Notes: a model not told the origin generated them from the letters alone. A stretch of 64,000 nucleotides of DNA from Bacteriovoracia bacterium (GCA_050246755.1 JBFWVL010000001.1:128001-192000); one strand, 5' to 3'. Shown: positions 4,406 to 30,174, counted from the stretch's first letter. Made by a program: numbers and translations.

Positions 4406-5302
4406 CTAATCGATGCGAACCTGAATGCGGTCCGGCACCACACGCACCAGCTTCACGCCGGCCGGTAATTCAGCCTTCACTTCGCGCACGTAAATTCCGG
4501 CCTTGGTCTCGGGAACTTCCACATACGCCTGCACCCGTTCCGGGGTCAAGGAGCGGATTAAATTTGGCGGGCAGTTCACGAAGAGCGCTACTTTTTCGGG
4601 CTTGGCGCTGAATGCGCGCGAGGCCTTAACCTTCACGGGCACGCCGGCCACGCGAAAGTTAGATCCCGTGGGCTCCACTTCCACCATCACGCGGGGATCA
4701 TTTTCCTCTTCGAAGCGCACGGCGGGGTGCACGAGCACGAGCGGCACCTCCCATTTCAAGCCGGCGGGAACGTCGGCGAGATCCACGGGTTGGGAGCGCA
4801 CTTCGGAAATCTTCTCGATGATATTGCGCGGGCCCTTCACGCGCACATTCTTAGGCATGGCCTGTAAACGCACCAGGCGGTAGCCATTCGGCACTTCGTT
4901 CTTTTTCACGATCTCCACCGGCACGGTGCGAACGTCCATATGCTCGAGGATGGGATTGATCGTAGACGGACTGATCGAAAGCACGCGCACGCCGATCGGC
5001 AAATGCAGCGAATCTTTTTGGATATTGTAGAAAGCGGGGCCGGTTTTCGCCTTCGTGAGATCCACGCGGATCGTATCGAGGGAATTGGCCAGGGTGCGCA
5101 GGAAAAACTTGGAGCCCGAGAGGCGGAAACTCACGCGGTCGGGCACTTCGTTGGCCACCACCAGGCCGGAGGGCAAGTCCATCTCGAGGTTCACTTCTTT
5201 GGTGATCTCGATGGAATTGGCGCTCATCACCACGAACCAGATGCCGAAGGCCACGAAGATGGAGAGAAATTTCCAGGCGAGATTATGGAATAAAAAGTTC
5301 AT
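4406..5302 (-). CDS. cdaR: CdaR/YbbR-family diadenylate cyclase regulator
   Basis: N-terminal TM (KFLSIFVAFGIWFVV) followed by three YbbR-like repeats; located between cdaA and glmM. Confidence 0.88.
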   Translation of the reverse strand: MNFLFHNLAWKFLSIFVAFGIWFVVMSANSIEITKEVNLEMDLPSGLVVANEVPDRVSFRLSGSKFFLRTLANSLDTIRVDLTKAKTGPAFYNIQKDSLHLPIGVRVLSISPSTINPILEHMDVRTVPVEIVKKNEVPNGYRLVRLQAMPKNVRVKGPRNIIEKISEVRSQPVDLADVPAGLKWEVPLVLVHPAVRFEEENDPRVMVEVEPTGSNFRVAGVPVKVKASRAFSAKPEKVALFVNCPPNLIRSLTPERVQAYVEVPETKAGIYVREVKAELPAGVKLVRVVPDRIQVRID

Positions 5303-15335: not shown

Positions 15336-15800
15336 ATGAAGGGTGAAAAGTTTTTCGACGTGAAAATGATCGCGCTGCTCATCGGCCTCGTTTTTCTGCT
15401 CGCCGCCATGGCCGCCCTCGGCGCGCCCTCCCTCGACAAACGCCTCTACTATACCGGCCTCGAAGCCCGCGAGTTCTTCTCCCGCCTTTCCGCGCAGGAT
15501 GCCGCCAACTACCGCCTCAACGAAATCATCGATCTCGGCTTCATCCTTCTCTATACCTTCACACTCGTGCTCACCTTCGTGCGCCTTTATCCCCGCTCCA
15601 AGCTCCTCTACTGGATCGCCTTCGCGCCGGCGGTTTTCGATCTCATCGAAACCGGTTCGATCCTTCACGTACTGAATTTCGGTGAGACATTTCCCGTGCT
15701 GAGCTGGCTGGGCGCGGCTACTTTTTTAAAGTGGGCCAGCACGGTGGTCGCGCTGGGACTGATTTTACGAGGTGGGTTGAGGAGGGTTAGTTTGGGGTGA
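15336..15800 (+). CDS. Hypothetical membrane protein (4 TM)
   Basis: Hydrophobic segments; DLGFILLYT, FDLIET and LKW motifs. Confidence 0.7.
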   Translation: MKGEKFFDVKMIALLIGLVFLLAAMAALGAPSLDKRLYYTGLEAREFFSRLSAQDAANYRLNEIIDLGFILLYTFTLVLTFVRLYPRSKLLYWIAFAPAVFDLIETGSILHVLNFGETFPVLSWLGAATFLKWASTVVALGLILRGGLRRVSLG

Positions 15801-15993
15801 GGGTTAGCTGGGATATTACCTGGCGCACGCAAACACATTGGCAAAGAGAGGTTGCGCGGCATTCTTCGTTTTGGTGCTATTGTCTCATGCGGTAGATCCT
15901 TCGGGTTTAGTGAGCGTAGCCAATAGCCAGCTAGACCAATTGAGGTAACGCACTTTTATTCACCAAATATTTTTATGCTTTCACCAATTTTAG

Positions 15994-16530
15994 CTAGAGC
16001 CCTACCACGGTTAACGGCCGATTGCCCACGCGCGTGATAAACTCCATCTTCTCTGTTTCAATTTGCCACTCTTTATCTACAAGGCGCAGTTGAAGTTCAT
16101 ATCCTGCCGTAGCACCATCCGAAGCCGTTTTTCGCAATCTGACAAAAAGTAGATCTCTTTTCTGCCAACAGAGAGACGAGATAGTTAAACGATTGTGCTT
16201 ATTTTTATCCCCAAAACCGCTCCTCAAAGATTGTCCCTTAAAAAGGGCAAATTCCTTATCTTTATAGAACCCTCTCAATGCTAAAAGAGTCGCCTCCATC
16301 TCTTCAGAAGAACTGTTATCGCTCAATAAAAATTCTTTCACCCCAGAATCTTTTGTTTTTTCTACAAAAAATTTATATGAGGCAATTTTTGCTTCTGCCG
16401 TCAAGCGCGCCTGTTCTTTCGAATCGCTATAAACGGAAGACTGGCATTTACGAGATGCGCCCTCTGCATCAAATCTCAAAAATATTGATGCCATCAAAAC
16501 TACGAAGCATACATTTAATCGCATTCTCAT
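15994..16530 (-). CDS. Small secreted hypothetical protein, paralog of 20466..20966
   Basis: Signal peptide; shares RL..[EQ]AK, I..LCWQ and the C-terminal beta-strand pattern with 20466..20966. Confidence 0.7.
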   Translation of the reverse strand: MRMRLNVCFVVLMASIFLRFDAEGASRKCQSSVYSDSKEQARLTAEAKIASYKFFVEKTKDSGVKEFLLSDNSSSEEMEATLLALRGFYKDKEFALFKGQSLRSGFGDKNKHNRLTISSLCWQKRDLLFVRLRKTASDGATAGYELQLRLVDKEWQIETEKMEFITRVGNRPLTVVGL

Positions 16531-16551
16531 CTGGCACGAATAATTAGGGCG

Positions 16552-16992
16552 TTAATTCTTCGTTTGTTCGTTTTTCTTTGGAACTAAAGCCTTTGCGACT
16601 AGCTTATTCTTTTCCCGAAGCTCCACAATGAATGCATTGGGAGTTGCCAAAAAATTAACTCTGGCCGAATCGAACATGTGAGGTAAAGATCGGCTATTCT
16701 CATTATTCTGCTTAGACCGCTTAGCAAAAGACATATTTCCAGTTTGCTTCAAAAGCAGGAAGGCCGATTCAATTTCTTTTCCATTTTTATCTTTTAATAC
16801 TGCGCGCAGGTCTGTTGCAGCCGCGGACCTATGGTCTTCATCTGTTCTTTCGCGAGAATATGAAACTCTAGATAAATTTAAAGAAAATTTACCGTGGTCC
16901 TTGATCACAAGTCCCAGGATTGCGTCTTGCCCAGGCTCAATACCATGACTATTGAATGGAAAAAATAATAGACAAAAAATAATGAACTTCAT
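16552..16992 (-). CDS. Small secreted beta-rich hypothetical protein resembling the post-protease domain of 21017..24439
   Basis: GAGG RBS; signal peptide; LRAVLKDKNGKEIESA..ARVNFLATPNAFIVEL compared with YLVELKTISNELISSS..LEFTVPVTANGVFVDI. Confidence 0.7.
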   Translation of the reverse strand: MKFIIFCLLFFPFNSHGIEPGQDAILGLVIKDHGKFSLNLSRVSYSRERTDEDHRSAAATDLRAVLKDKNGKEIESAFLLLKQTGNMSFAKRSKQNNENSRSLPHMFDSARVNFLATPNAFIVELREKNKLVAKALVPKKNEQTKN

Positions 16993-17120
16993 TCTACCTC
17001 AAAGTTTAAATCTGCTGCGCCAGCCAATTTCAATCTAGACCATTCTCTAACTTTGATTGTTGACCAGCCGGAAGTTTTAGCTCCACTCCTAGAGCTTAGT
17101 TCCAGCCGTTTGACGTTCCT
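16989..17120 (-). pseudogene. Decayed orphan C-terminus of module X
   Basis: Manual translation ...KRLEL...RLKLAGAADLNFEVE* compared with RRLEI...KEVGRSAEINFSVP*; its stop overlaps the next ATG (ATGA). Confidence 0.4.
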
Positions 17121-17179
17121 GAGAAAACCGGCCCACGCCAAATCCGTAAAAAGCCGCTTATACGCCCCTACCGACCAAA

Positions 17180-17974
17180 TTATTCTTTATCAAAAATCAA
17201 AATACCGAAGGCCCTGATCGTAGTAATGTCTTTTTTTACTCCAGAGAACGTGGCCTCATACTTTGTGCGCTTTAAAATCTCTCCAAGCTTAAAATCCGCC
17301 TGATTCTTCTTATTGTCATACAAATAGAGGTCGTTGTCGGCCAAGCCACTTTCAAGAAAAAGCGGCCGTGAACCTCCCGCTGACTGAGCTAGCTGGGCAC
17401 TACATTTAATTGTATCCGAGACGCCGCCCGCCCTAGAAACGATAACGCAATCTGGGGCCCGATAGAGCGCCGTAATCAGCTTGTTTCCCAAGCCGTCCAA
17501 TGCCTTTCTCGAAAAGAAAGCCGGAAAAGGCAGGATATATGAAACCTTCCGGCGCTGAACATACGCTTGAACCTCACCTTCTCCGCCATCGCCGGGGATA
17601 TTTTCAAGAGACTCGAACTCCAGCGGAAAAAGCATTATGAGCAAATAAAACACACTAAATGTAATAAAAAAAATCGGAAGAGCACTTCCCCGCACTTCGC
17701 GGAAAGCAGAAAACCTATAACGCCGCAGGCAAATCTGAAAAAATTTTACAAAGAAAAAAGCAAAGCTCGCCAGAACGCAGAGAAAAGAAATACCTTTAAA
17801 AAGGCTCGAAATAGGTACGGCAACCCAAAAATAATTGAAAAATACGAGAACTCCAAAAAATAAAATAGCCGGAATTTCAAAAACAAATAGAACCCAAAAA
17901 ATAGCGGTACTTAACAATAGAAAACTGACGTAATCCGAGCTTGGGTCTTTTAAAAATTTTCGAATTCTATTCAT
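17180..17974 (-). CDS. Hypothetical membrane protein (3-4 N-terminal TMs plus a soluble domain)
   Basis: 264-aa AT-rich ORF with Phe-rich hydrophobic segments. Confidence 0.6.
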   Translation of the reverse strand: MNRIRKFLKDPSSDYVSFLLLSTAIFWVLFVFEIPAILFFGVLVFFNYFWVAVPISSLFKGISFLCVLASFAFFFVKFFQICLRRYRFSAFREVRGSALPIFFITFSVFYLLIMLFPLEFESLENIPGDGGEGEVQAYVQRRKVSYILPFPAFFSRKALDGLGNKLITALYRAPDCVIVSRAGGVSDTIKCSAQLAQSAGGSRPLFLESGLADNDLYLYDNKKNQADFKLGEILKRTKYEATFSGVKKDITTIRAFGILIFDKE

Positions 17975-18098
17975 ACCGCAATTATCTCTACGGCCCGACC
18001 ACGCATGCCGGAGGCATTTATCTTTTTAAGACTCAGTCGTCTTGTCACCAACTTAAAAGACAAATATTTAGAATCCACAAAATTCCCTTATCGACCAT

Positions 18099-18929
18099 CT
18101 ATTCGGCCCCGTACACTTCGATTTCACGCGTCCTGCCTTGCCCGAACCATTGAATTTTTCGAACGAGCTTTAATCCTAGCCGCGACGGCTGGTTTTTACT
18201 TAAAATTTCAACCATTGCCCTATTCGGAAAGGGGAGAACTCCCGGAAGAATCTCCCTAGAATAGACCACTGCGTCCACATGAAAATCTTTCAGGGCTAAC
18301 CGTGGCTCATTCTGACGATAAAAAAACAAAAAATATGAGGGCAGAAGAAGTAATGCTTCAAATGGTCGTATAAGAAACGCCAAAAAATAAAATACCGTAT
18401 AGCCCCACGCCTTCCCGGAGCAAAGGCAAGCTAGGGCAGATAGAGCAAAGGCGCAGAATGGCAGCTCAGACATGAATGCGCGGCTCATCCCCACGAAAAA
18501 TGGATACGTGCAGACGGTGGCTGCGCCCAGAGCGGCCGCGGCTTGGCTCAAACCCAAACCTCTTAAGACGGCCCTGCTACTGAACGTCGCTAACGCAAGT
18601 AAGGAGATGCCGAATAAAATAACCGCCGTTTCGATTGTTCCCGTTAGACAAAGAAACAAAGACCCTAGTATTGGGTGGTATGTTGAATATTGAATTTTTG
18701 AAGTAAGTAATTCATACAGCGCGGCGCCCAGTGGTCGAGTGGAAAATGTCTCCCTCCACCGGACGGCGTAGTTCCAATGGAGAAAATCATCGGATTGAAA
18801 GTCGAATGGGTTAAAATAAAAATATAGGCCAAGAAGGACACAAGGAAGAACGAGAAATATATTAGAGACCATGCACCTAAAAGAAGACTTCAGTAACGCA
18901 AATCCATTTGGGGGAAAATATGACTCCAT
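18099..18929 (-). CDS. GT-C/ArnT-like membrane glycosyltransferase, apparently truncated or internally deleted
   Basis: DDFLH after TM1, RPLG, SRAFMSELP and LAFLIRP motifs; only 276 aa. Confidence 0.5.
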   Translation of the reverse strand: MESYFPPNGFALLKSSFRCMVSNIFLVLPCVLLGLYFYFNPFDFQSDDFLHWNYAVRWRETFSTRPLGAALYELLTSKIQYSTYHPILGSLFLCLTGTIETAVILFGISLLALATFSSRAVLRGLGLSQAAAALGAATVCTYPFFVGMSRAFMSELPFCAFALSALACLCSGKAWGYTVFYFLAFLIRPFEALLLLPSYFLFFYRQNEPRLALKDFHVDAVVYSREILPGVLPFPNRAMVEILSKNQPSRLGLKLVRKIQWFGQGRTREIEVYGAE

Positions 18930-19059
18930 TTATCTCTTTATCCTTAAGAAAGAAAAATAAAAGACTAGGCCTACTGAAAATTCGGAATTATAAAAAATGA
19001 CAAAGAGTTCGCCCAACTAAGAACCTCCATGGCGACTCTTTTAAATTAAGAGGTCTTTA

Positions 19060-19295
19060 TTAATCTGCTATTCCTTGAGCGACTGCCTCTGAAATTAAAA
19101 TTTCTCCCTTCGCCTCACTTAATACAAACCCATAAATATACCCCTCATCACGATATTTTTTGGCCCCCAAGAATACTATAATTTTCTCGCCCACAGCCTG
19201 GTCGGAAAATCGAGAGAAGGTCAAAACCGAGTACCTTACAGCCGCCTAGCGTACAAATATTCTATCCCTGTAAAGAATACAGGCCCATCCTTCAG
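19060..19295 (-). pseudogene. Degenerate copy of the 20466..20966 gene
   Basis: Manual translation GEKIIVFLGAKKYRDEGYIYGFVLSEAKGEILISEAVAQGIAD* compared with AEKNILVGGSKKYRSGGGYFYRFVLSEVKGELLVSEAVAQGIGD*; upstream EYLYARRL (vs EHLYVSRL) lies in another frame; no start codon. Confidence 0.85.
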
Positions 19296-19299
19296 GAGG

Positions 19300-20034
19300 C
19301 TATTTTGCAGATTTCCCGAAGCAAGTTATGGGGGCTAAATCATTCCCATCAGGATCCAATTTAAAATCACAAGTCTGCGTTAGAAATAGCGAGTTGGTCG
19401 TAACGGCGCGGACATCCCATTTTCCGCCATTCCACTTTGGGAAAACCTCCCACATAAGATGCTTGGGATCGAAACCCCAAAGCATCGCCGCAAATCTCGA
19501 ATCAGAATAATACTTTGAAACCGCTAGTCTTGCTATCGCCTGCCTCTCGAGAGGTCTCATGCCTATTAAAGCCTGCGGCTCGCCAACATCTTCCCCATAA
19601 AACTCGTAGGACATGGGGCGCTTAACAATAAATAGCATGACGCAAAATAGCGCTATCGAGCCTAACAAAAAATATACATTTTTAATTCCACGGAAACTCG
19701 AGTCTCCATCGCGTGCAAAAAATAAAATAATAAATGCAGCACTCGCGGGAAGTGCAAATCCAGGAATCAAAAAAAGACTTGAGCTGGGCGAACCGTTAAA
19801 GTTTGAAATTAATTCAAATGAAAATATTAACAATGCATAAAACACCAATAAGATTCCAAAGAATGACGTTAAGGTATTCTTACTTGAGGAAAGTGAAATT
19901 TCTCTGCCGCTAAACGAAGATCGACTGAGTTTCTTCGATAAAAAGAGGGCAGCTATCACAAAAATGCTCGTGACCAATGAAAATACTAAACAGTATAGAA
20001 GTAGCCGAAACTCCTGTGATAAAAATGCCCTCAT
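19300..20034 (-). CDS. Hypothetical membrane protein (4 TM plus a C-terminal domain with a Cys pair)
   Basis: 244-aa ORF; start overlaps the stop of the upstream remnant (ATGA). Confidence 0.65.
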   Translation of the reverse strand: MRAFLSQEFRLLLYCLVFSLVTSIFVIAALFLSKKLSRSSFSGREISLSSSKNTLTSFFGILLVFYALLIFSFELISNFNGSPSSSLFLIPGFALPASAAFIILFFARDGDSSFRGIKNVYFLLGSIALFCVMLFIVKRPMSYEFYGEDVGEPQALIGMRPLERQAIARLAVSKYYSDSRFAAMLWGFDPKHLMWEVFPKWNGGKWDVRAVTTNSLFLTQTCDFKLDPDGNDLAPITCFGKSAK

Positions 20035-20228
20035 GGTATTATGGTAATCAACCTTTCTACACTTGCCCCGAACGACTTCCGCTCTTCTTGGATTTTCATC
20101 TCAAGTAAGTAAATTCTGGATTCCAAAACCAAGAGCCTCGCTTGTATGCGACTAATTTTATCTGAGTTAGTTTTTGTGACATTGGCGGGAGAAACAAGAC
20201 CAGCTTGCCGAGTCAGAAAATTTTTCAA
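20031..20228 (-). pseudogene. Orphan C-terminal fragment of module X
   Basis: TNSDKISRIQARLLVLESRIYLLEMKIQEERKSFGASVERLITIIP* aligns almost without gaps to NDPDRRLEIESQILILSRRIANARSQGAELEKEVGRSAEINFSVP*; an in-frame stop lies just upstream; no signal peptide. Confidence 0.65.
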
Positions 20229-20465
20229 AAAAATTCACCGATTTTTAAATTTATTCCCAACATCTATTTAGATGAAGCACTTTGCCGTGCGATTATTGCA
20301 GAAGATAACTCTTATGCTGAAATCCTCGTAAAACAGGGGGCAACGTCACCATGTGTCTCTAACCCCTAAGAGGCAAAATCCAAAAGCTATAATTTTCCCG
20401 AAAACTCTGCGCCCACTGACGACGGCAAAGCTTCAGCCAAATGAACTACTACTCTATGATATTCG

Positions 20466-20966
20466 CTAATCCCCGATCCCCTGAGCAACTGCTTCTGACA
20501 CCAAAAGCTCTCCCTTTACCTCACTCAACACAAATCGATAAAAATAGCCGCCGCCACTACGATACTTCTTCGATCCACCCACCAATATGTTTTTCTCAGC
20601 CTGCCAACATAGAAAATCAATCCCAATTACAATGACGCCCTTACCAGCATCAGGAATTGACGAATATCCACCTGCATAAAAAGTCTGGCCTTTAAACTTC
20701 TTAGATAACCTAGAAACGTAGAGATGCTCATCTGCATTTTTCTCTAGAGTACGATCAACAAGACCTATTTTTTTTATTTCAGTGGGCAAATTTTCAGCCA
20801 ACCAAAAAAAAACTTTCTCTTTCGCCTGGCTTTCAAGCCGAAATCTAACCGACGGCTTAACCTTTAAATCATTGACCTTTAAACACCCAGCATGGCCAGT
20901 AACACTGCATAAAAACAAAAGAAAAATAGCAAAATATTTTTTATACCAATTAACCATAAATGACAT
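20466..20966 (-). CDS. Small secreted hypothetical protein (candidate cognate partner or inhibitor of the upstream protease)
   Basis: GAGGG RBS; signal peptide ending GHA; 2 Cys in the mature part; two further paralogous copies downstream. Confidence 0.75.
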   Translation of the reverse strand: MSFMVNWYKKYFAIFLLFLCSVTGHAGCLKVNDLKVKPSVRFRLESQAKEKVFFWLAENLPTEIKKIGLVDRTLEKNADEHLYVSRLSKKFKGQTFYAGGYSSIPDAGKGVIVIGIDFLCWQAEKNILVGGSKKYRSGGGYFYRFVLSEVKGELLVSEAVAQGIGD

Positions 20967-21016
20967 ATTACCCTCAATGACAACATCACGGTAATAAATT
21001 AAGTATGGATCACCAA

Positions 21017-24000
21017 CTATGGAACGGAAAAATTAATTTCTGCGCTTCGCCCTACTTCTTTTTCCAGCTCAGCCCCCTGAGACCTCGCGTTAGCAATTCG
21101 CCTAGATAAAATTAGAATCTGGCTCTCTATTTCCAACCGCCTATCAGGATCATTTTCATCTCTTAATCTCGACCGAAGATCAAATATATCTTGCCGCCAA
21201 GAAGCAATCGCAGACCTTAGTGCAAACCAAGGACGCTTAGGCACAAGACTCACATTCACCTGCCATCTATGACTTCCCGACACAAGCCTGAATGACTCTG
21301 CCTCTAGATATCGCTCATGATGCTTAGGTTCGACCCTAGTCCCGTCATAAAATACATTATAAACAAACATATATTCGGGATTTTCGGGAGACTTGACGAA
21401 ATCCGCCCTCAGCCTATTTCGTCCTCCTACAATATTACCTCCATCAGTATCGAGAACCACGAAAGGGCTCGGATCCTCCAATACTGGCGGCTCTAAAGCA
21501 CTTAGCCTAACAAAGGCACCAGCAATTTGTTTTCCAATTTCATGCTTACCAGCATCCAAATAGGAGTCAGCCAGAAATGAATCTACAAGCAGGCTCGACG
21601 CAAGTGGTGCCAATTGTTTACTTAGTATCTGTTTAGCTAATGAAATTTTCCGCGCCAAAACAGCAGCCCGCAATCTAGATATCTCCGCTGACAACTTTGC
21701 TCGTCCAGAGATTGCATTAACAATAAAAGCTCGATCTGGAATGTATTTAACCTCTTCATCTATTAAATCAGCTGGTATAACCACCGAGCCTAATTTAACT
21801 TTTCCATTTAAGTTATCTCGAAAAATATCTACGAATACGCCATTCGCAGTGACAGGAACAGTAAATTCCAACTCAGGCGAACCCCCAGGGAGGTTGATAT
21901 CCTCCTTTGCCGCAAATCTCGAAGATGAAATTAATTCATTGGAAATAGTCTTTAACTCAACGAGGTATTCCCCGTCGGAGTTGCTAGGAACTTCGCGATT
22001 TGAATATAAAACATACGTGCTAAACCTATTAAATACGTTTTGACTAATATTTCCTGAAATCAGAATTTGGCTCCCAGGAAAGTTCATGGTCACTTTTTGC
22101 GGACCTGGTATATTTCTTCTAAAGACCTGCACATAATCATTATAAGAAAACCAAAAAGGATTGGGGTCTATATATGGCTGAGCTGGGTCAATGCTATATT
22201 CATTCGACTGCCCTTGCATCATTACATCAATTTGGGCAAGCCTTTTTCCGCGACCTATCTCAATTGGTATAGAAAAATCATAGTTAGAATACCCCTCAAA
22301 TCTAGCTTGGGGATTAAGTGGATCAATAATTCGAGGAGCATGCCATCCCTCTTCGCCGGAGGGTGGCGAGCAGCCGGTTCTACTATCGAATCTAATACAA
22401 AAAGTGTGCCCCAGCTCATGCGCCAAACTTTTAATCAAACCACTCTGCACATGAAAAGCAGGCTCATCAAAGTTGGCCAGTCCAACCGAGTCATGAAGTT
22501 CGTGCGGCGAAGGAAACTTCTGATGAAAGTAGTTATTGGAAACAATCCCAACAAGATGAGTGATCGTCGTATCATTATAAAATTCAGTGGAATTTTCTTT
22601 ATCTACTAGCGCTTTAAGAATATTTCGATCATTTTGAATATCTAACACATCTCCCGTACCCCATACTTTTCCAATTAAAAAATCTCTAGTGAAATCTGTG
22701 TCCGCAGCCGGATAAAGTTGCTTCAAATATGGAAATCCGCCAAAAATGGAAGTCTCATAGGAAAATTCATCTGGCACCTTTGGCTCCGGACCCTTCTCAA
22801 AGCCAGTTCTAACAAAGCCGAGATGAAGGGGCTTTGTTTTTCTAACTCTGACAATAATTTTTCTTTCGGAAATAATTCCGTTTTCTGAATTCCTTAAAAC
22901 GACGTGCATTGTCTTGTTAAGACCGAGAAATGCGCTAGTGGCTGGAACAGGATTTATCTCAAATGTGACGGTTGAACTCCCGCTTTCATCTGTGATTACT
23001 GGATTTGGATGTAAAGTGATCCCATTCCATTCCATGGTCGATTTTGCAATATCGACAGCGGCATTTATTCCCGAAACCACTACATCAGCATTCTTTCCTG
23101 CCACCAGATCTACCTCTTGACCATTACAGAAAGATGTATACTGGCCGGAGCAAAGATTTGGATTTTCAACCACTTGAAACACCGAATACTCACCGGGATA
23201 AGGCTTCACATAATAGGCCGAGTAACCAGAATGGTTTGGATTTGAAGAATGGAGTCGAAATGCGGCTTCACCTTTATTATTGAAAGCACCGGCGTAGAAG
23301 GCAATGCTTAGAAAAGCTTCTGTATTTTCTGATATTGCTTTTGGATTAGCCAACATTATCGGATCTCTACCGAGCGCAAAATTGTAGAGTGCGGGTCCGT
23401 TGAAAGCACTAGCAGAAGTCGCTACTTCGTCGTTATCGTTGATTGAAAAATCATGAAGATCACACGGGAAATCGGGGTTGAGATAGCCAAATCCGGTAAA
23501 AGGAGAACTTAGGCTATCTACGTCTTCCCTCGCGTATGTTCTAGCAAGTTCTTCCACAAATCTATTTCCGGCTGAATACCTGGAAAGCAAAAGAAACTGC
23601 TGTCTTGTTGCTCCAATCATCCTAGTGCCAGAAAAAACAACAGATCCCTTGGAATTAATATCAGCACCTCCAAGGCAAATATTATCAAAATGAATTGAAC
23701 CCAAATTGGTAGGAATGGCCTCAAGAAAATTCGCCGAATTCCTAACTACTATCTCGTCAGTATTTCCCGTTCTTCTCTTATACATGAGCCAGCCATTGTC
23801 TTTCACAATAGGTTCGCCGACTATAGTCGCTGGGCGTGCGCCTTGATCCACAAACTCTAGACCGTTACCAGACGAAAAATAGATAGCGGTGGTTCGATAG
23901 CCTGCATCACTAGGATGTAAATCAACTAAAAAAGCCTGCGCAGAACCGGAGGGAGACACACTATGACCGCGAATTGCTTGAACTCTCAAATTATTTCCAG

Positions 24001-24439
24001 CAGCACCAGCGTCAACCAAGGTCTCATAATAGAGCTGTGCACTAGGCGAACTACCATTGTTTGTGAACGAGTAGACACCCCTTCCCCATCCATCTGGTGC
24101 GGTCGGAATTCCTACGGTAGGTGTAGTTATTCCATAAAATGTTCCATTGTCATCAAATGAAAGGCTCGGCAAAAAACTATTACTAAATCCAATTATCGGA
24201 ACGGGCGTCGTAAGAGGAAATTCACTCCCAATATAAAGGAGTTCATTGGCAGAATTTACGGCAACTTGACCACCATTATTTAAAGCAGGCGTTCCGTCTC
24301 TATTCTGAAATGCCGAAATCTCTTTTCCATTATATTCTAACCGAGTTCCGGGAAGCACGAGTTCAGTTTTATAGGCGTAGAATGGAGCTGCTGTCGCGCA
24401 TAGAGGAAGAAGCGCTACAAGAAAGAATACTCCTCTCAT
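21017..24439 (-). CDS. Large secreted protein: NxxGxxxF-repeat beta-propeller + HExxH metalloprotease + beta domain + helical bundle + module X
   Basis: Likely start MRGVFF at 24439 (ATGA overlap, GGGAGGGG RBS); repeats LNNGGQVAV, INSKGSVVF, INDNDEVAT, FNNKGEAAF; LVAGK; LAHELGHTF...WH...DVMM. Confidence 0.8.
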   Translation of the reverse strand: MRGVFFLVALLPLCATAAPFYAYKTELVLPGTRLEYNGKEISAFQNRDGTPALNNGGQVAVNSANELLYIGSEFPLTTPVPIIGFSNSFLPSLSFDDNGTFYGITTPTVGIPTAPDGWGRGVYSFTNNGSSPSAQLYYETLVDAGAAGNNLRVQAIRGHSVSPSGSAQAFLVDLHPSDAGYRTTAIYFSSGNGLEFVDQGARPATIVGEPIVKDNGWLMYKRRTGNTDEIVVRNSANFLEAIPTNLGSIHFDNICLGGADINSKGSVVFSGTRMIGATRQQFLLLSRYSAGNRFVEELARTYAREDVDSLSSPFTGFGYLNPDFPCDLHDFSINDNDEVATSASAFNGPALYNFALGRDPIMLANPKAISENTEAFLSIAFYAGAFNNKGEAAFRLHSSNPNHSGYSAYYVKPYPGEYSVFQVVENPNLCSGQYTSFCNGQEVDLVAGKNADVVVSGINAAVDIAKSTMEWNGITLHPNPVITDESGSSTVTFEINPVPATSAFLGLNKTMHVVLRNSENGIISERKIIVRVRKTKPLHLGFVRTGFEKGPEPKVPDEFSYETSIFGGFPYLKQLYPAADTDFTRDFLIGKVWGTGDVLDIQNDRNILKALVDKENSTEFYNDTTITHLVGIVSNNYFHQKFPSPHELHDSVGLANFDEPAFHVQSGLIKSLAHELGHTFCIRFDSRTGCSPPSGEEGWHAPRIIDPLNPQARFEGYSNYDFSIPIEIGRGKRLAQIDVMMQGQSNEYSIDPAQPYIDPNPFWFSYNDYVQVFRRNIPGPQKVTMNFPGSQILISGNISQNVFNRFSTYVLYSNREVPSNSDGEYLVELKTISNELISSSRFAAKEDINLPGGSPELEFTVPVTANGVFVDIFRDNLNGKVKLGSVVIPADLIDEEVKYIPDRAFIVNAISGRAKLSAEISRLRAAVLARKISLAKQILSKQLAPLASSLLVDSFLADSYLDAGKHEIGKQIAGAFVRLSALEPPVLEDPSPFVVLDTDGGNIVGGRNRLRADFVKSPENPEYMFVYNVFYDGTRVEPKHHERYLEAESFRLVSGSHRWQVNVSLVPKRPWFALRSAIASWRQDIFDLRSRLRDENDPDRRLEIESQILILSRRIANARSQGAELEKEVGRSAEINFSVP

Positions 24440-27315
24440 TTTCCCCTCCCAGCCGCACCGCAAGCATCAGCGAAATCAAGCGTACATGCCCGTTGCCACA
24501 ATCTCGTCTTCGTGAAATCGTCGCCGTCTTCGGAATACATATTTCCTAGCTCGTAACAAGCACCGCCGTCGCCGGGAGGCGCCCAGCAGGCGTTGGTCAG
24601 CAGCTGCCTCTTAGCTTCACGCTCGCCGTCATACGGAAGATCGAGCTTCTTTTTTGCCAGCGGTGGCGCTCCGCTAACATTCACCGTCACGAAGGTGAAT
24701 ACGAGGTTGCCATCGTTATCCACCACGGCGAGGTTAACTCCGTAAGTACCCGGTGTTTCGTACACGTGAGAAGCCACGGCCGTCGTCGTCTCCTCCGATC
24801 CATCGCCCCAGTTCCAGCTGTAGCTGGCAATGGTTCCATCATAGTCATAAGATTCCAAGCCGTTCACATTGAGCGTGAAGGGAGCAACGCCCGAGAGCGC
24901 GCCATTACGAATGATCGCTCTAGGGGCATGGCCCGCATTCACGTTGAATACTTCCATAAAAGCCCTCTGCGGCGGCGTGAAGCCAACACCCGAGGTCACC
25001 CCCATGCTCACAAAATAATTGCGCGCGAGCGGATAGGTATAGTTCACGAACTGCCCGTTCGCGATGCCTTGCCCGTCGGGATTTAGGAAATCCGAGAAGC
25101 GCCAGTTCCAGTTAATGATGGTCCCGCCGACATTGGGATTCACGGCGTAGCTTCCGTTGAAGCTCAAGGGTGTGCCAAGGAGGACTTCGCGAGGCGGCCC
25201 GACCACAAACTGATTCACGGGCGCCATGCTGCCGCTGATTCCCGGCTGCACAAGGATAATAGCCTCTCCTTCAGCTCCATAAGCATCTCTCGTGCGGAGA
25301 CGGACATTGTAGTTTCCGGAAGCATTGTAAGCGTGAGTGACTACTGGGTCGGTAGTCACGGTCTCGCCAAACGCATCGCCGAAATTCCAGCGGTACTGCA
25401 CGATTCCGTCCGAGTCGCTCGCCTCCGACGCGTCGAACGTTACGGTGCGGGGAAAAGATCCGAGCAGGCCACTCACCCGAAATTTTGCGGTAGGCATATC
25501 GGTATCCGTAATCACCACCGTGATATTGGCCGACGTGGTGGCGCCGAGGTTATCGGTGGCCGTGAAAGTGGCGTTATAAGTGCCGGTAGCTGGGTAGTTG
25601 TGCAGAATAAAGGCAGCGGCGGTATCAAACGTGCGTTCACGGGTTCCGTCGCCAAAATCCCACCACATGGATTCGATCGTTCCGTCGGGGTCGGTTACGC
25701 CGCCGACCGCCAATGCAAGAGCTAGCCTTACCTGGAAAGGTGCGCCAGGCGTTTTCTGGTTAACGAAGGGAGCAGCGCCCAGCACGGGAGGAAAGTTCGC
25801 CACTACCGACACGGGAATGGAAACAACGGTGCTAAGTGGAGGGGTGCCGTTATCAACAATGGTTACTTCGAGAGTGTCGGTACCTTCGTTCTCACCAGCC
25901 TGGAAACTAACAAGGCCAGCGGAAGAAACGGAGGCGGTTCCGTATGCGCTTTGCTTCGTCACGAAGAAAGAGCGCACCTGCCAGAAATCCGCGTCGGCCG
26001 AAGTGATTTGGCTGGTTCTCGTCGCATTGATCCCGGCGGTGATCGAAGGAGCGGATCCCGTGGGCGCGCGGTTAGCGGGGGCGCTCACTTCAACGACGGC
26101 AAGCGAAATATTGCCGGTCATGAAGGGAGTGGTGGTTTCCGCGATACGCATTTCCATCACGTAGTAGCCAGGAACGTCCGGCGTGAAACTGTAATTTACG
26201 TCCGTGCTCACGGGATCGGTATTGATCGCGAGCGCGGAACCGGTTGGTTTCGAGATCAAGCGCCACTCGAAGGCAAGGGGCTGGTCATTCACGTCGTGGG
26301 AATTAACCGCGGTTACTTGCGCCCCTTCTCCGAGAGCGATCGGGCTGGCCACGGCTTCGGCAATTCCGATCGGCGCGGTGGGTGGAATATAGGGCTCGGG
26401 AACGATTACGGTGTCGTTCGTGGCAAAAAACGCATTTTTACGAATTGCATTCTTCACGACTCCGCCCGAGGTAAAGCGAATCTCCACGTCTTTGCTGCCT
26501 TCGGTGGAAAACACGGGAGTATTGAGCGTGATGCTCGTGGAGCCAGAGCTCGTAACGGCCGTCGTAATGCCGCCAAGTTTTACTTCGGGGCTAGAACCAA
26601 AATTGGCGCCAGAGATCGTGATCGTGGTACCACCCGCGGCGGCCACGAGGTGGGGCGTTACGTCGGAAATTCTCGGGAAATCCGTTCCGGTCGTTTGCTC
26701 CACCACGTTGAACGAAATGCTTTCTTCGCCCACGGGGGATTTTAGGGAGGCGAGAGCGGCCACGAGCTGGTTCTTGAGCGAAACCTTCTCGTCGCGCTGG
26801 GCCGTAAGCTGGGCGATCTCGGTGGGGTCGGTCGCGGCCGCGATGGCGGCGTTTAGAGAAACAATATCGGCCTCGAGCGAAACGATCGCGTCGCGGATTT
26901 GCACGGCCTGGGCTTTGTCCTGGATAAACATCGAGGCCAGGAAGGTATGCGATTTGATTTCGGTTAAGGCGCCGGCATCATAGATCCACATCTCTTGGGA
27001 AGGATGCTCGAGAGCAACGGTGGCGCCATCGAATTTACCTTCGAGCAGCACTTCACTATCCGTAAATCCCGTATTGGGAATGAGGTAGAGGCTCACGTGA
27101 TCGCCCTGGGCGGGAGTATTCGAAGGAGACACGAATATTCGCACCAGGGGATCACTCAGCTTCTTGATCTTGAGAGTCCGGTCTCTCTTGGCTTTCTCCA
27201 TCTTGGCGATGAGAGTTTTTACCTTAATATTCGTTACCGAACCCTTTGCCGCAAAGGCGGCATCGGCGAAGTTTGCAACGCAGAGAGAGAGCACTAATAA
27301 AATGATTTTTTTCAT
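24436..27315 (-). CDS. Secreted adhesin-like protein: module X + IPT/TIG + Ig/cadherin-like + about 4 PKD + C-terminal Sel1-like repeat
   Basis: AAGGTTITISGANFG (IPT); WDFGDG, WNFGD, WNWGDG and SHVYETPGTY (PKD); AC...ACYELGNMY...RAC...AC (Sel1-like). Confidence 0.85.
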   Translation of the reverse strand: MKKIILLVLSLCVANFADAAFAAKGSVTNIKVKTLIAKMEKAKRDRTLKIKKLSDPLVRIFVSPSNTPAQGDHVSLYLIPNTGFTDSEVLLEGKFDGATVALEHPSQEMWIYDAGALTEIKSHTFLASMFIQDKAQAVQIRDAIVSLEADIVSLNAAIAAATDPTEIAQLTAQRDEKVSLKNQLVAALASLKSPVGEESISFNVVEQTTGTDFPRISDVTPHLVAAAGGTTITISGANFGSSPEVKLGGITTAVTSSGSTSITLNTPVFSTEGSKDVEIRFTSGGVVKNAIRKNAFFATNDTVIVPEPYIPPTAPIGIAEAVASPIALGEGAQVTAVNSHDVNDQPLAFEWRLISKPTGSALAINTDPVSTDVNYSFTPDVPGYYVMEMRIAETTTPFMTGNISLAVVEVSAPANRAPTGSAPSITAGINATRTSQITSADADFWQVRSFFVTKQSAYGTASVSSAGLVSFQAGENEGTDTLEVTIVDNGTPPLSTVVSIPVSVVANFPPVLGAAPFVNQKTPGAPFQVRLALALAVGGVTDPDGTIESMWWDFGDGTRERTFDTAAAFILHNYPATGTYNATFTATDNLGATTSANITVVITDTDMPTAKFRVSGLLGSFPRTVTFDASEASDSDGIVQYRWNFGDAFGETVTTDPVVTHAYNASGNYNVRLRTRDAYGAEGEAIILVQPGISGSMAPVNQFVVGPPREVLLGTPLSFNGSYAVNPNVGGTIINWNWRFSDFLNPDGQGIANGQFVNYTYPLARNYFVSMGVTSGVGFTPPQRAFMEVFNVNAGHAPRAIIRNGALSGVAPFTLNVNGLESYDYDGTIASYSWNWGDGSEETTTAVASHVYETPGTYGVNLAVVDNDGNLVFTFVTVNVSGAPPLAKKKLDLPYDGEREAKRQLLTNACWAPPGDGGACYELGNMYSEDGDDFTKTRLWQRACTLDFADACGAAGRGK

Positions 27316-27327
27316 GTCCGGGGTTCC

Positions 27328-27837
27328 TTAGTTCAAATTGGTAAAAGAAGAGAAATTGTAGGTCTCGCGGCCGATTCTATTTTTGAGGCCTTCTAGCTCC
27401 GCCTGGAGCCGCGTTTGGAGTTGGAGATTTTTATTGAGCTCGGCCTCAAGGGCGGCGAGGTCATCTGGGTCAGAGGTTTCGGCGATCTCGGCGCGGAGGC
27501 TTGCAATCGTTTGCTCTGTTACTTTTAGAGATTCAGAGAGGCGATCGGTTTGCCGGGCGTCGGCCAAGGAGATCAGAAAAGAAATCGCGTGGGCGCCGTT
27601 TCCTGGAACTTTAAATACCCAGAGGTCTTTGGCGGGATGCTCGAGGGTCGCAGGGTAGCCATCAAAGTTGGCGTCGAGCACCACGTAGGACTTTTCAAAA
27701 TTCGTGTTGGCGCGGATGAAGAGATTCACCTGCCCGTTCGCGGCCCGATTTTCCGAAATACTAAGAAAAGAACTGGTTTTTGGGCCGGCCAAGGCCGCAA
27801 AAGGCAAAAAGAGGCAAAGCAGTGCAATAAATTTCAT
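27328..27837 (-). CDS. Secreted protein consisting only of module X
   Basis: GAGGA RBS; signal peptide; FDG.PATLEHP..LW shared with the N-terminus of 24436..27315; helical hairpin with a central SDP. Confidence 0.8.
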   Translation of the reverse strand: MKFIALLCLFLPFAALAGPKTSSFLSISENRAANGQVNLFIRANTNFEKSYVVLDANFDGYPATLEHPAKDLWVFKVPGNGAHAISFLISLADARQTDRLSESLKVTEQTIASLRAEIAETSDPDDLAALEAELNKNLQLQTRLQAELEGLKNRIGRETYNFSSFTNLN

Positions 27838-27846
27838 ATTTTCCTC

Positions 27847-28839
27847 TTACTGGGCCGTGAGGGTGATGGATACGGGCTGGCCCACGGGGGTGCGAACCTC
27901 GGCGAGGTGCGCGCGCGTGGAATTGAGCAAAGCTTGATTGCGGTCGATCTCGGCCTGGATGGCGGCGATCTCGGTAGGGTTCGTGGTATTGCCAAGAGCG
28001 GTGGTCAGGCGAGTGATCTCGGCCACGTAGAAATTAATGGCGTCGTTGAGGGATTTGGCCTCTTTCTTGTTTTGTAGAAACAAGCTGGCCACGAACTCTT
28101 GGTCGCCCGCTACGAGGGGAGAAGTGGTCCCGTAGCTCTGGCTATCGGTGATGCGCGTGAGGGGGAGATCGGATCCGGCAAAAGAGGCCGAAACGTAGAA
28201 TTCGAAATTAGAATTCGTGGGTCCGTTTCTCGTGGTGAGAAGCACGGTGGCCTTTGCGCCAACGGCGTAGCTCGGCTGGTCGGCGCTCAGAATAAGATTA
28301 TAGGTGGGAGTTGGTACGGGGTGCGGCTGGTAGCCCGGAAGGATTTCGATTCCGTTCACGAGGGCGTCCCCCACTACGCTCGCGAAATTGAGGTTGATCA
28401 CGCCGGATGGATTGGCGTTTACGGTAAACTCCCTCACGGTGGCGATCCCGATGCCCCCGGTCGCGCCCACGATATCGAAGTTGGTTAAAACCTGGGAGCC
28501 ATTGATACCGATGTTGAAAATACGGGAGCCGCCCGTGGTGTGATAGAGCTCCGCGAAATGAAGGCGAACGAGGTGGGCTGCGCCGGCCTCGAGGCCAGGG
28601 ATCGCGTAGGAGAAGTTTCCGTAGCGGCAGGTTTGGTAAACGGCGAGCGGCGCGGGGTTCGTTACTTGGCTTGCGTTGATCGGGATGCCGGTGGTGTAAG
28701 GGGTTCCGCCGCTAAAGTACTGGTCGGCGGTATAGTTTCCATTCGCCACCACCGTGCCGGCACCGATTGCGATCGGAGAGTCGGCGTGAGCAAAAGTGCT
28801 GCAGAAGAAAAGAGCGAGCGCCAAGCAGGAACGGAACAT
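27847..28839 (-). CDS. Secreted malectin-domain protein with C-terminal module X
   Basis: YTADQYFSGG, VYQTCRYGNFSYAIP, VRLHFAELY, RIFNIGING, NFDI and LVNGIEI (malectin); GGAGGG RBS before ATG 28839. Confidence 0.88.
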   Translation of the reverse strand: MFRSCLALALFFCSTFAHADSPIAIGAGTVVANGNYTADQYFSGGTPYTTGIPINASQVTNPAPLAVYQTCRYGNFSYAIPGLEAGAAHLVRLHFAELYHTTGGSRIFNIGINGSQVLTNFDIVGATGGIGIATVREFTVNANPSGVINLNFASVVGDALVNGIEILPGYQPHPVPTPTYNLILSADQPSYAVGAKATVLLTTRNGPTNSNFEFYVSASFAGSDLPLTRITDSQSYGTTSPLVAGDQEFVASLFLQNKKEAKSLNDAINFYVAEITRLTTALGNTTNPTEIAAIQAEIDRNQALLNSTRAHLAEVRTPVGQPVSITLTAQ

Positions 28840-29183
28840 GAGCAACCCTCCATAGGTAGCAAAAATCACCAACCACCATGTTGGCGCACTCGACTTTCAG
28901 GCGAGATTTAAATTCGAAGGAGATAGGAACACGAAATAAACTAATCCGGCAATATCTTTTTTTTAGGCTAAAAGAGATTTAATATTCGTCCGAACTGGCT
29001 GCATTGCAACTAATGCGGCGAGAAATATACCGAAAAAAATTTACTTTTTTTCCCGTGAGAAATGATGATTTCTCGCTAGGCAGAGTGGCTGGTGTTTTTT
29101 CTAAAGAAACGAAGAAAAGACCGCACGCATTAAACTCGATGCGGCAGAATTCTTCCTACACGGTGAGAGGCGCGCGATAGCCG

Positions 29184-29221
29184 GAAAATAGAAAGGGCGG
29201 AGCAACTAGTGCCCCGCCCCC
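29184..29221 (-). terminator. Intrinsic terminator after the ArsR-SRPBCC operon
   Basis: Minus strand GGGCGGGGCA-CTAGT-TGCTCCGCCC followed by TTTCTATTTT. Confidence 0.7.
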
Positions 29222-29235
29222 GCTAAGTACAATCT

Positions 29236-30174
29236 CTAATTTTTCTGCAGATACTCTTCGAGCTTGTCGAACGATCCGGTCCAGCCCTGGGTCATTCCCG
29301 CTTTGGCTTGGTGGAAGGTTTCGCGCTCGGCCGCAGAGGCCTCGCCGTAGACTTCCCACTGGATCGTCACGCGGGTTTTGTTCTCGGATTCCGCCGTGAA
29401 GCAAACCGTAGTGAGCATGGTCTCCGGCCAAGTGGGCGCCGCGGGATGGCGGGAGACATTTCCTTCTTTGTCACAGAAAATCTGCGTATAAACGAGCTTG
29501 CTGGGCTTCGTGATTTCCTTGTAGTGGATCTTCCCGTACATCGTGATCTGGCCGTTGCTCATAGAATAGAAATTCGTCCCTCCGGCCTTGATATCGGCCT
29601 CGATGCTTTTCATGGTGAAACCAGTAGGCGCCAGCCACTGGGAGAAATGCTTGGGATTGGTCCACATCTCGAACATTTTCTCGATGGGCGCCTCGAAGCT
29701 GCGGTTGATCACGAAGCGGTCCACGGGAGAGAGGAACTCGGCGAGTCGGTCCCAGGTGGAATCGCCTCCAGCCTTCTTGATGAATTTCTTGGTTTCCTTG
29801 GCGGCTTCTTCGGTGGGCAGCGCCATGGTCATTTCCATCTTGGTCTTGCCGGCTTTTTCGGAGAACTCCACCGTCACCCGGAATAGCGGGGCCTGTTCAT
29901 CGTTGCCGCCGTGGTCGTAGACCATGCGGGAATATTTTTCCACCTCGAGGTATTTGGTTTTGTTCACGTAGTCGGTGCCGTCGGGCCCGTGCATGGTGTA
30001 GTGCCAGGTGCCGCCGGTGCGGATATCGGAATTGTGCGTGGTGATGGTGAAACCACGGGGCCCCCACCAATGCGCTTTTTGCTTGGGATCGGTCCACGCG
30101 TCCCAGACCATCTTCACGGGGGCATCGTAGACGCGGCTGATATAGAGTTCGTTGGGTTTATTTTTTACGGGCAT
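29236..30174 (-). CDS. Tandem SRPBCC (AHSA1/START-like) domain protein
   Basis: Two copies of the pattern R...AP...(W/F)..WT.P.....W..P.GF; C-terminal GWTGSFDKL. Confidence 0.92.
   Translation of the reverse strand: MPVKNKPNELYISRVYDAPVKMVWDAWTDPKQKAHWWGPRGFTITTHNSDIRTGGTWHYTMHGPDGTDYVNKTKYLEVEKYSRMVYDHGGNDEQAPLFRVTVEFSEKAGKTKMEMTMALPTEEAAKETKKFIKKAGGDSTWDRLAEFLSPVDRFVINRSFEAPIEKMFEMWTNPKHFSQWLAPTGFTMKSIEADIKAGGTNFYSMSNGQITMYGKIHYKEITKPSKLVYTQIFCDKEGNVSRHPAAPTWPETMLTTVCFTAESENKTRVTIQWEVYGEASAAERETFHQAKAGMTQGWTGSFDKLEEYLQKN

Follow-up and report, generated by a model that had tools for sequence, protein, structure and literature searches.

Organization of the G1-G4 operon

On the minus strand of a stretch of Bacteriovoracia bacterium DNA (GCA_050246755.1, JBFWVL010000001.1:128001-192000; the whole 64-kb stretch is here called the window, and coordinates are 1-based from its first letter), four translationally coupled genes, G1 to G4, run from 28839 to 21017, and each encodes a protein with one copy of a module of about 150 amino acids (aa), module X, for which no matching characterised domain was found. 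The open reading frames lie at 27847-28839 (G1, 330 aa, with an ATG at 28839 preceded by a GGAGGG ribosome-binding site), 27328-27837 (G2, 169 aa), 24436-27315 (G3, 959 aa) and 21017-24439 (G4, 1140 aa). G1 and G2 are separated by 9 nucleotides (nt) and G2 and G3 by 12 nt, and the spacing of G3 and G4 is -4, the G4 start overlapping the G3 stop as ATGA. A purine-rich ribosome-binding site precedes every start, and no terminator-like site was found between any of the four genes. A previous reading of this DNA from the sequence alone (the sequence-only reading) had described four adjacent, co-oriented signal-peptide genes with these same gaps; the frames and the spacing were recovered directly, and by eye all four N-termini have the appearance of Sec signal peptides with A-x-A at the end.

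Homology of the four modules and absence of a named family

Module X occupies residues 176-330 of G1 (nt 27850-28314), 18-169 of G2 (nt 27331-27786), 55-209 of G3 (nt 26689-27153) and 989-1140 of G4 (nt 21020-21475), all on the minus strand, and the four segments align in register and nearly without gaps. The motifs that had been quoted for it, i.e., an FDG, YDG or FAG turn, a helix joint (TTNPTEI, TSDPDDL, ATDPTEI, ENDPDRR) and a last strand following V/I-G, are all present and fall in register in the four-way alignment. Modules inside one operon share just 13-30% identity, and pairwise BLASTP gave 82 bits for G2-G3 (33% over 153 aa), 60 bits for G1-G3 and 28.5 bits for G2-G4. The similarity was evaluated with an external profile of 197 modules, from which this genome and the C-termini of large proteins were excluded to avoid circularity. 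It scored 154.9, 104.9, 159.7 and 69.9 bits in G1 to G4, respectively, vs. at most 5.6 bits in 500 shuffled versions of the G4 module. Even the G4 match (E 1.7e-14 for a database of 1.8 billion sequences) covers profile positions 10-146, and therefore spans the β-sandwich as well as the helical hairpin described below. The four copies are homologous, and what they share exceeds a generic coiled coil.

When 1.84 billion representative sequences were searched with an X profile, 403 clusters passed E ≤ 1e-3, of which 272 also passed 1e-10 and 31 passed 1e-30; the best 150 of the 403 were taken for a census of domains. At E ≤ 1e-5, Pfam assigned no family to 95 of these 150 representatives and none to any stand-alone or tandem-only X protein among them, while the best stretches of TIG, malectin, PKD and RCC1 that were checked lay outside X. 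No Pfam family was found in G2 at E ≤ 0.01, NCBIfam returned just sub-threshold coiled-coil noise for X, and PHROGs contained no match. The sequence-profile search of the PDB reached GCN4-type coiled coils only (best 25 bits). Structure comparisons of a single X were similarly unproductive: Foldseek found nothing in the PDB at E ≤ 1e-3 (the best row was GlgE 5vt4_C, E 1.5e-3, template-modelling score (TM) 0.30, followed by assorted Ig domains), the viral structure library BFVD gave no match at E ≤ 1e-3, and exhaustive fold alignment to 48,161 chains yielded top rows that reach only the hairpin (residues 76-135) and are generic helical hairpins. In the ESM Atlas, a structure search with the X of G2 stayed at TM ≤ 0.48 and a feature search gave no usable match. 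A word-indexed protein search returned G2 itself and otherwise 5 proteins, the index being too insensitive for the X family. Keyword searches of the literature found no paper uniting Bdellovibrio and malectin, and, to judge from the records listed, none on Bdellovibrio with Rhs polymorphic toxins or RCC1 was about module X. Module X thus constitutes an undescribed domain family, with 403 representative clusters at 50% identity and no model in Pfam, NCBIfam or PHROGs.

Predicted structure and conserved surface of module X

The AlphaFold2 model of G2 residues 18-169 (predicted local distance difference test score, pLDDT, 85.9) shows six strands, two 27-residue helices (77-103 and 107-133) joined by a three-residue turn, and a strand at 136-147. 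As modelled, X is an Ig-like β-sandwich with an antiparallel two-helix coiled-coil hairpin of about 40 Å inserted before the last strand. Some relatives consist of two X modules in tandem, and one such protein (P0008), modelled by AlphaFold2 with an alignment of 33 sequences, reached a pLDDT of 92.4 and a predicted TM (pTM) of 0.86, with a low-confidence linker (blocks of 78 and 53). Since the pTM is this high in spite of the linker, the two modules are predicted in one fixed mutual arrangement. In the exhaustive fold search with the tandem model, the sandwich part superposed on ordinary Ig, FnIII and carbohydrate-binding-module-like domains (Z 9-11.7, root-mean-square deviation (rmsd) 1.6-2.4), while Foldseek with the same model gave tandem-Ig proteins only (TMq ≤ 0.23). 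All rows of the exhaustive search aligned either single hairpins (60 residues) or single sandwiches, and none contained both hairpins at low rmsd. The geometry of a four-helix bundle is therefore unsupported, and a four-helix bundle in tandem X-X, which had been considered, was dropped.

Among the surface features of 214 distinct modules, those at the two ends of the hairpin are the most conserved. The tip carries an E-T-D-P motif, with D in 178 and P in 168 of the 214 modules, and helix 1 has Q-D/N-K at its base; both motifs are conserved in all X subtypes, and the E-T-D-P tip may be a helix-capping box only. Along both helices an Ala/Ser-enriched stripe runs beside the a/d heptad seam, and to judge from its composition it could allow a second packing surface. 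Subtype-specific conserved residues are also present. In helix 2, columns 114, 121, 124 and 128 of the 214-module alignment are bimodal, with Arg/Lys or Ile/Leu according to subtype (e.g., R69/I67 and I85/R55). This pattern hints at two classes of hairpin surface, possibly complementary partners.

Cargo domains of the four proteins

In agreement with the sequence-only reading, X is fused to a different cargo in each protein: malectin in G1, none in G2, TIG/PKD in G3 and an HExxH region in G4. The malectin domain of G1 (aa 31-142, PF11721) scored 70.7 bits vs. a cutoff of 23 (E 1.9e-19) in Pfam, and 59.7 bits in the paralogue P1. G2 consists of a signal peptide and X, with nothing else. In G3, a TIG/IPT domain (aa 214-282, PF01833, 36 bits vs. 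a cutoff of 20.9, E 6.8e-9) is followed by Ig-like/PKD repeats to about aa 890, with PKD_4 at 165.9 bits (E 2.2e-49, 4 stretches), PKD at 127.3 bits (PF18911 and PF00801, both above their gathering thresholds) and K319L-like_PKD. The G3 tail is a Lys/Glu-rich linker and then a conserved C-terminal four-Cys motif of about 45 aa, AC..G..AC..L..MY.EDGD.F....L.E+AC.LG...AC (nt 24439-24600, minus strand, last ~50 aa), which is present in 22 of the 27 X-TIG-PKD-type proteins listed. The malectin and IPT/PKD assignments made by eye are confirmed by these scores. The Sel1-like label for G3 is not: its last 75 aa match no Pfam family, Sel1 included, at E ≤ 10, and the likeness was one of appearance.

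G4 comprises a signal peptide, an N-terminal region of about 560 aa of no known family, the HExxH region, a helical linker and the C-terminal X. The motif, HELGH at aa 674-678 (nt 22406-22420, minus strand), had been noted before, and all 7 of the homologues aligned retain its H, E and H. The longer form HExxHxxGxxH was not found in G4, and no Pfam family reached gathering score in the protein. Reprolysin_5 reached E 0.33 in Pfam, ADAM17 chains appeared at E 0.3-1 in the PDB profile search, and language-model features lie nearest to Peptidase_M66/Reprolysin_3 clusters (score 0.95, 199/256), the last to be taken as a lead only. G4 is a putative zincin-type peptidase, with presumed catalytic activity, and belongs to a class of large proteins, found repeatedly, that combine HExxH with X at the C-terminus. 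The propeller proposed for its N-terminal part could not be confirmed, as these 560 aa match no Pfam family at E ≤ 10; two homologues of G4 in genome G007 gave sub-threshold matches to DUF7453 (E 9e-5 and 2e-4).

G4 also differs from the preceding genes in base composition. A low-GC island at 15800..24440 (GC 0.36-0.50 in 400-nt windows vs. 0.55-0.62 in the flanks) contains G4 and six small genes of no family, and the break sits exactly at the G4 start codon. GC in G4 is 0.427, vs. a contig average of 0.546, and its GC at third codon positions (GC3) is 0.34, vs. 0.59-0.73 for G1-G3. With the island beginning at G4, this gene and its own X look like an acquired cassette in the variable last slot of the operon, and on this compositional basis the effector slot of the window appears to have been replaced by horizontal transfer. 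No tRNA was found by a scan of 10000-32000 and no integrase in the island.

Distribution, operon conservation and cargo of the X family

X was found in 6 of 41 close relatives (this genome included), in 9 of 127 genomes in the class and in 16 of 401 sampled in the phylum, a family that is real but narrow and patchy among genomes. At least two X matches occurred in 15 of the 16 positive genomes of the phylum sample, and several complete genomes in that sample carry an X operon. X genes were also clustered: 16 of the 18 loci examined contain 2-5 adjacent co-oriented X genes, with 2-7 modules per cluster and often with overlapping or nearly abutting reading frames, and the two singleton loci sit on contigs of 8.1 and 5.8 kb. 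The flanking genes differ in every locus, and no candidate gene for a common partner is conserved among them. The gene order of the window recurs in G007:C5, G001:C71 and G006:C17 (loci L020, L021 and L022), where a short X protein (X-TIG or malectin-X) is followed by X alone, X-TIG-PKD and a variable gene. Co-occurrence with swapping of cargo, which the sequence-only reading had left to be looked for in related genomes, is therefore observed.

The window's own genome possesses two further X loci. A paralogous operon at C1:823536-831663 (L007 1536-9663) has three genes, a GC of about 0.50 and no cargo-free X gene; its products are a malectin-X protein of 344 aa, an X-TIG-PKD/Big_9 protein of 1051 aa with the four-Cys tail, and a protein of 1299 aa with Big_9/PKD, Peptidase_C39_2 (32.8 bits, cutoff 24, Pfam) and a C-terminal X. 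The third locus, at C1:33042-37051 (L027 7024-11051), encodes an X protein of 176 aa and another of 318 aa whose X is C-terminal. About 2.5 kb between these X genes are occupied by an insertion-sequence-type integrase frame (rve, HTH_21) and two frames of no family, and the locus looks disrupted. A search for loci with the whole G3 protein was discarded as uninformative on X, since its 78 loci, mostly in Actinomycetota with a few archaeal and other bacterial ones, were reached via the PKD repeats only (query ~330-960).

A quick FastTree-type tree of the modules (146 columns, many weak branches) required 29 changes of genome label vs. a shuffled mean of 33.9, and placed together the X modules of X-TIG-PKD proteins from four genomes with an SH-like approximate likelihood-ratio (SH-aLRT) support of 91. 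The scatter of one genome's modules over the tree, together with the grouping by subtype, indicates old, maintained paralogues with subtype-specific conserved residues.

Among the best 150 of the 403 representatives, the cargo consisted of TIG/PKD/Big_9-type repeats in 41, malectin in 7, RCC1 in 6 and LRR in 1; the 95 without a Pfam family include stand-alone X proteins (~170 aa) and tandem X-X proteins (~340 aa). Of the 214 distinct modules, 51 sit in proteins no longer than 260 aa, and 26 proteins are tandem X-X with no other domain. LamG, a PQQ-type propeller, PEGA, CarboxypepD_reg and PAP2 were further cargo in the loci examined. To judge from these annotations, cargo falls into two groups, binding domains (malectin, TIG/PKD, LamG, RCC1) and probable effectors (HExxH or C39 peptidases, Rhs toxins). 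In one protein (P0022) malectin (192-333) lies between two X modules (28-182 and 360-520), which adjoin the N-terminal and C-terminal tandem types, respectively, in a FastTree leaf order read irrespective of support values.

Five of the 18 loci have, within them or next to them, a gene for an Rhs/YD-shell (teneurin-like) toxin with a Sec signal (L022 5296-9696, L028 3606-8127, L108 1-3463, L111 10334-14017 and L114 14465-18000). The toxin in L028 has X at its N-terminus (aa 44-177), directly after the signal peptide, the Rhs gene in L114 has a partial X, and in both loci large LamG-repeat proteins are encoded upstream. L022 also has, at 4946-5299, a 117-aa frame that has a signal peptide, begins like X and shares 4 nt with the start of the Rhs gene (1466 aa). 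This frame may be a truncated X, or the remains of an X-Rhs fusion that was split or frameshifted.

A possible role of module X in assembly

X genes are tightly clustered and translationally coupled, X and X-X proteins without cargo are conserved, and old, distinct subtypes are retained within operons. Together these features suggest that X is a module for mutual assembly, by which binders and an adaptor would be joined to an exchangeable effector. This is the reading we prefer, yet tentatively, belief and doubt in it being nearly balanced. After Sec export, the X domains of the co-expressed proteins would associate with one another, by hairpin-hairpin or hairpin-sandwich contacts, and four kinds of subunit would unite as one extracellular or periplasmic hetero-oligomer. 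In such a complex, G1 (malectin-X) would be the glycan-binding subunit, G3 (X-TIG-PKD with its four-Cys tail) a long adhesin or stalk, G2 (X only) a cargo-free adaptor and G4 (HExxH peptidase-X) an exchangeable effector, whose slot would be filled by the C39-like peptidase in the paralogous operon and by Rhs/YD-shell toxins in relatives. If X did no more than carry or aim cargo, stand-alone copies would not be expected, and the frequency of cargo-free X therefore favors an assembly role.

Several observations weigh against this reading. The conserved hydrophobic positions of the hairpin form a single a/d seam, as expected of a self-contained two-helix coiled coil, and with the tandem-model fold search giving no match that joins both hairpins, the mechanism of the sequence-only reading, in which hairpins bundle together, is not upheld. 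Every subtype shares the best-conserved polar features (the E-T-D-P tip and the Q-D-K base), and this distribution speaks for a common external partner no less than for mutual recognition. Only a single X is present in G309, a genome that is 99% complete. With 2-7 modules per operon there is no fixed stoichiometry, which argues against one fixed four-subunit complex. The nearest tree row of G2 is G3 of the same operon (path 1.73), while the stand-alone X proteins of genomes G001 and G007 belong to another clade, so that "X alone" is not one orthologous subunit, and local duplication of a generic domain could have generated both the operon clustering and the tandem forms. Of the sequence-only reading, the shared unnamed module, its fusion to diverse cargo and the conservation of X operons with swapped cargo in relatives stand, while the bundling of the hairpins into a hetero-oligomer is unsupported.

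The conserved tip and base could instead mean that each X binds the same non-X partner, for instance a surface polymer or protein of the producer or target cell, and that X is a common targeting or anchoring domain that co-localizes proteins without their binding each other. Periplasmic adaptor proteins dock on TolC by a conserved hairpin tip. The free position of X (N-terminal, internal or C-terminal) and the predominance among its cargo of other binding domains, and of effectors that would have to be aimed, are consistent with such a role. Nonetheless, cargo-free X and X-X are frequent and conserved in operons, which is hard to reconcile with a pure targeting tag, the rigid arrangement predicted for X-X suggests X-X contacts, and no gene for a common partner accompanies the varying flanks; we regard an anchor as unlikely, though worth keeping in view. 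Less probable still is a function in export, trafficking or folding, by which X would be recognized on an outer-membrane route or act as an intramolecular chaperone, and would be shared because the products use the same route. Polymorphic toxins have N-terminal trafficking domains, and the position of X in the L028 toxin, the Rhs/YD-shell genes in or beside other loci and the signal-peptide-like N-terminus of every X protein examined would agree with it. However, the peptidase proteins have X at their C-terminus and G1 has it after malectin, positions unlike those of a sorting signal, cargo-free X carries nothing to export, and no secretion-system genes are conserved beside the X operons in the loci examined.

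An equally small chance is given to X being an Ig-like spacer or stalk with a decorative coiled-coil insertion, clustered by local duplication and domain shuffling in a fast-evolving surface-protein locus. The sandwich does match ordinary Ig-like folds, X proteins are rich in other Ig-like repeats, and G2 is closest to its operon neighbor, but modules within an operon share little identity and mostly group with counterparts in other genomes. Moreover, exactly one X (or a defined tandem) is kept per protein beside many PKD repeats, cargo-free X genes are maintained, and conserved surface residues are specific to subtypes, all of which points away from a spacer.

An extended form of the assembly reading takes X as the connector of a modular secreted attack complex, in which lectin or adhesin subunits and a swappable effector subunit, each with one X, self-assemble via X, with cargo-free X and X-X proteins as adaptors. 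Horizontal transfer would exchange the effector from strain to strain, in line with the low GC of the G4 cassette. The whole of this proposal, the presumed biological target included, is doubtful as it stands; if true, an Ig-plus-coiled-coil module would be the basis of a plug-in system reminiscent of AB toxins or cellulosomes. X operons are of a conserved type whose exported products pair glycan or surface binders with proteases or Rhs toxins. Should X be an assembly element, it would provide a new, genetically compact route to exchangeable multi-subunit extracellular machines, and finding X and reading its cargo would locate binding and killing factors of the carrier bacteria. Even as a targeting domain only, an X model would annotate hundreds of "hypothetical" secreted proteins.

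Comparison with known systems

The cohesin-dockerin system of cellulosomes resembles the X operons in that one small recurring module is found on many co-encoded secreted cargo proteins, with plug-in binding and catalytic subunits, and the best Foldseek row for the tandem model was a cohesin+FnIII construct (2w1n, E 1.8e-7), at a TM of only 0.19/0.28. However, Pfam Cohesin and Dockerin were not found in window proteins, paralogues or the 150 relatives, X is a single module type instead of a receptor/ligand pair, there is no multi-cohesin scaffoldin, and cohesins are without a coiled-coil hairpin. Periplasmic adaptor (membrane fusion) proteins share with X a long antiparallel coiled-coil hairpin that projects from a small β domain and has a conserved tip; their hairpins oligomerise and dock tip-to-tip. 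Their hairpin sits between the two halves of a lipoyl domain, whereas X has it in an Ig-like sandwich, ahead of the last strand. The X proteins scanned gave no match to HlyD or biotin-lipoyl families in Pfam, and no pump genes lie nearby. Chains of periplasmic adaptors did not appear in the X fold searches, which is not proof of difference.

Domains N and S of the maltosyltransferase GlgE likewise combine a β-sandwich with a helical insertion, used for dimerisation, and GlgE was the only solved structure that Foldseek aligned over both sandwich and helices (5vt4_C, 161 columns; 3zss_A with the tandem model, Z 9.2). For the single X, however, the TM is 0.30/0.10 and the rmsd 13 Å, the tandem rmsd is 8.2, identity is 11-14%, and GlgE is a cytoplasmic enzyme: the resemblance is a topological echo and GlgE not a relative. 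Polymorphic toxins (Rhs/YD-shell, with modular N-terminal domains) and multi-subunit ABC-type toxins are comparable in that X operons of relatives combine Sec-signal Rhs/YD-shell proteins, one of them X-fused, with LamG and malectin, and the terminal gene of X operons is variable and looks exchangeable by horizontal transfer. On the other hand, the window operon has a peptidase instead of Rhs, no PAAR, type VI secretion system or TcA-like genes were seen in the loci, and no immunity gene was identified.

Neighboring genes and limits of the operon

A fifth co-oriented gene (20466..20966, minus strand) starts 50 nt after G4 with its own ribosome-binding site and encodes a 166-aa protein of no family, whose signal peptide may include a lipobox (HAGC). 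No terminator-like site separates it from G4, and it is possibly co-transcribed with G1-G4. A conserved small partner (inhibitor or immunity protein) was sought downstream of the peptidase genes, where this 166-aa gene, P5 and their counterparts proved mutually dissimilar. An exception was seen in genome G007, where two lipoprotein-like products, of L020 14515-14901 and L025 3224-4042, share a CKPGHEG.CNDVGYIS motif and 55% identity over 42 aa; the former gene follows a peptidase-X gene and the latter a 1140-aa gene without a detected X, and both are unlike the 166-aa gene of the window. Beyond the low-GC island, the flank contains a gene for a succinate-dehydrogenase-type flavoprotein.

Upstream of G1, an AT-rich leader of 350 nt (28840..29192, minus strand) is presumed to be the promoter region of the operon; a scan of it did not find a consensus sigma-70 site, and the Rfam scan of 20000-30000 gave no match. 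The genes upstream encode AHSA1-family and ArsR-type helix-turn-helix proteins. An intrinsic-terminator-like hairpin at 29193..29221 (minus strand; a 12-pair stem with 8 GC pairs and a T run) closes the AHSA1-family gene and thereby sets the 5' limit of the operon.

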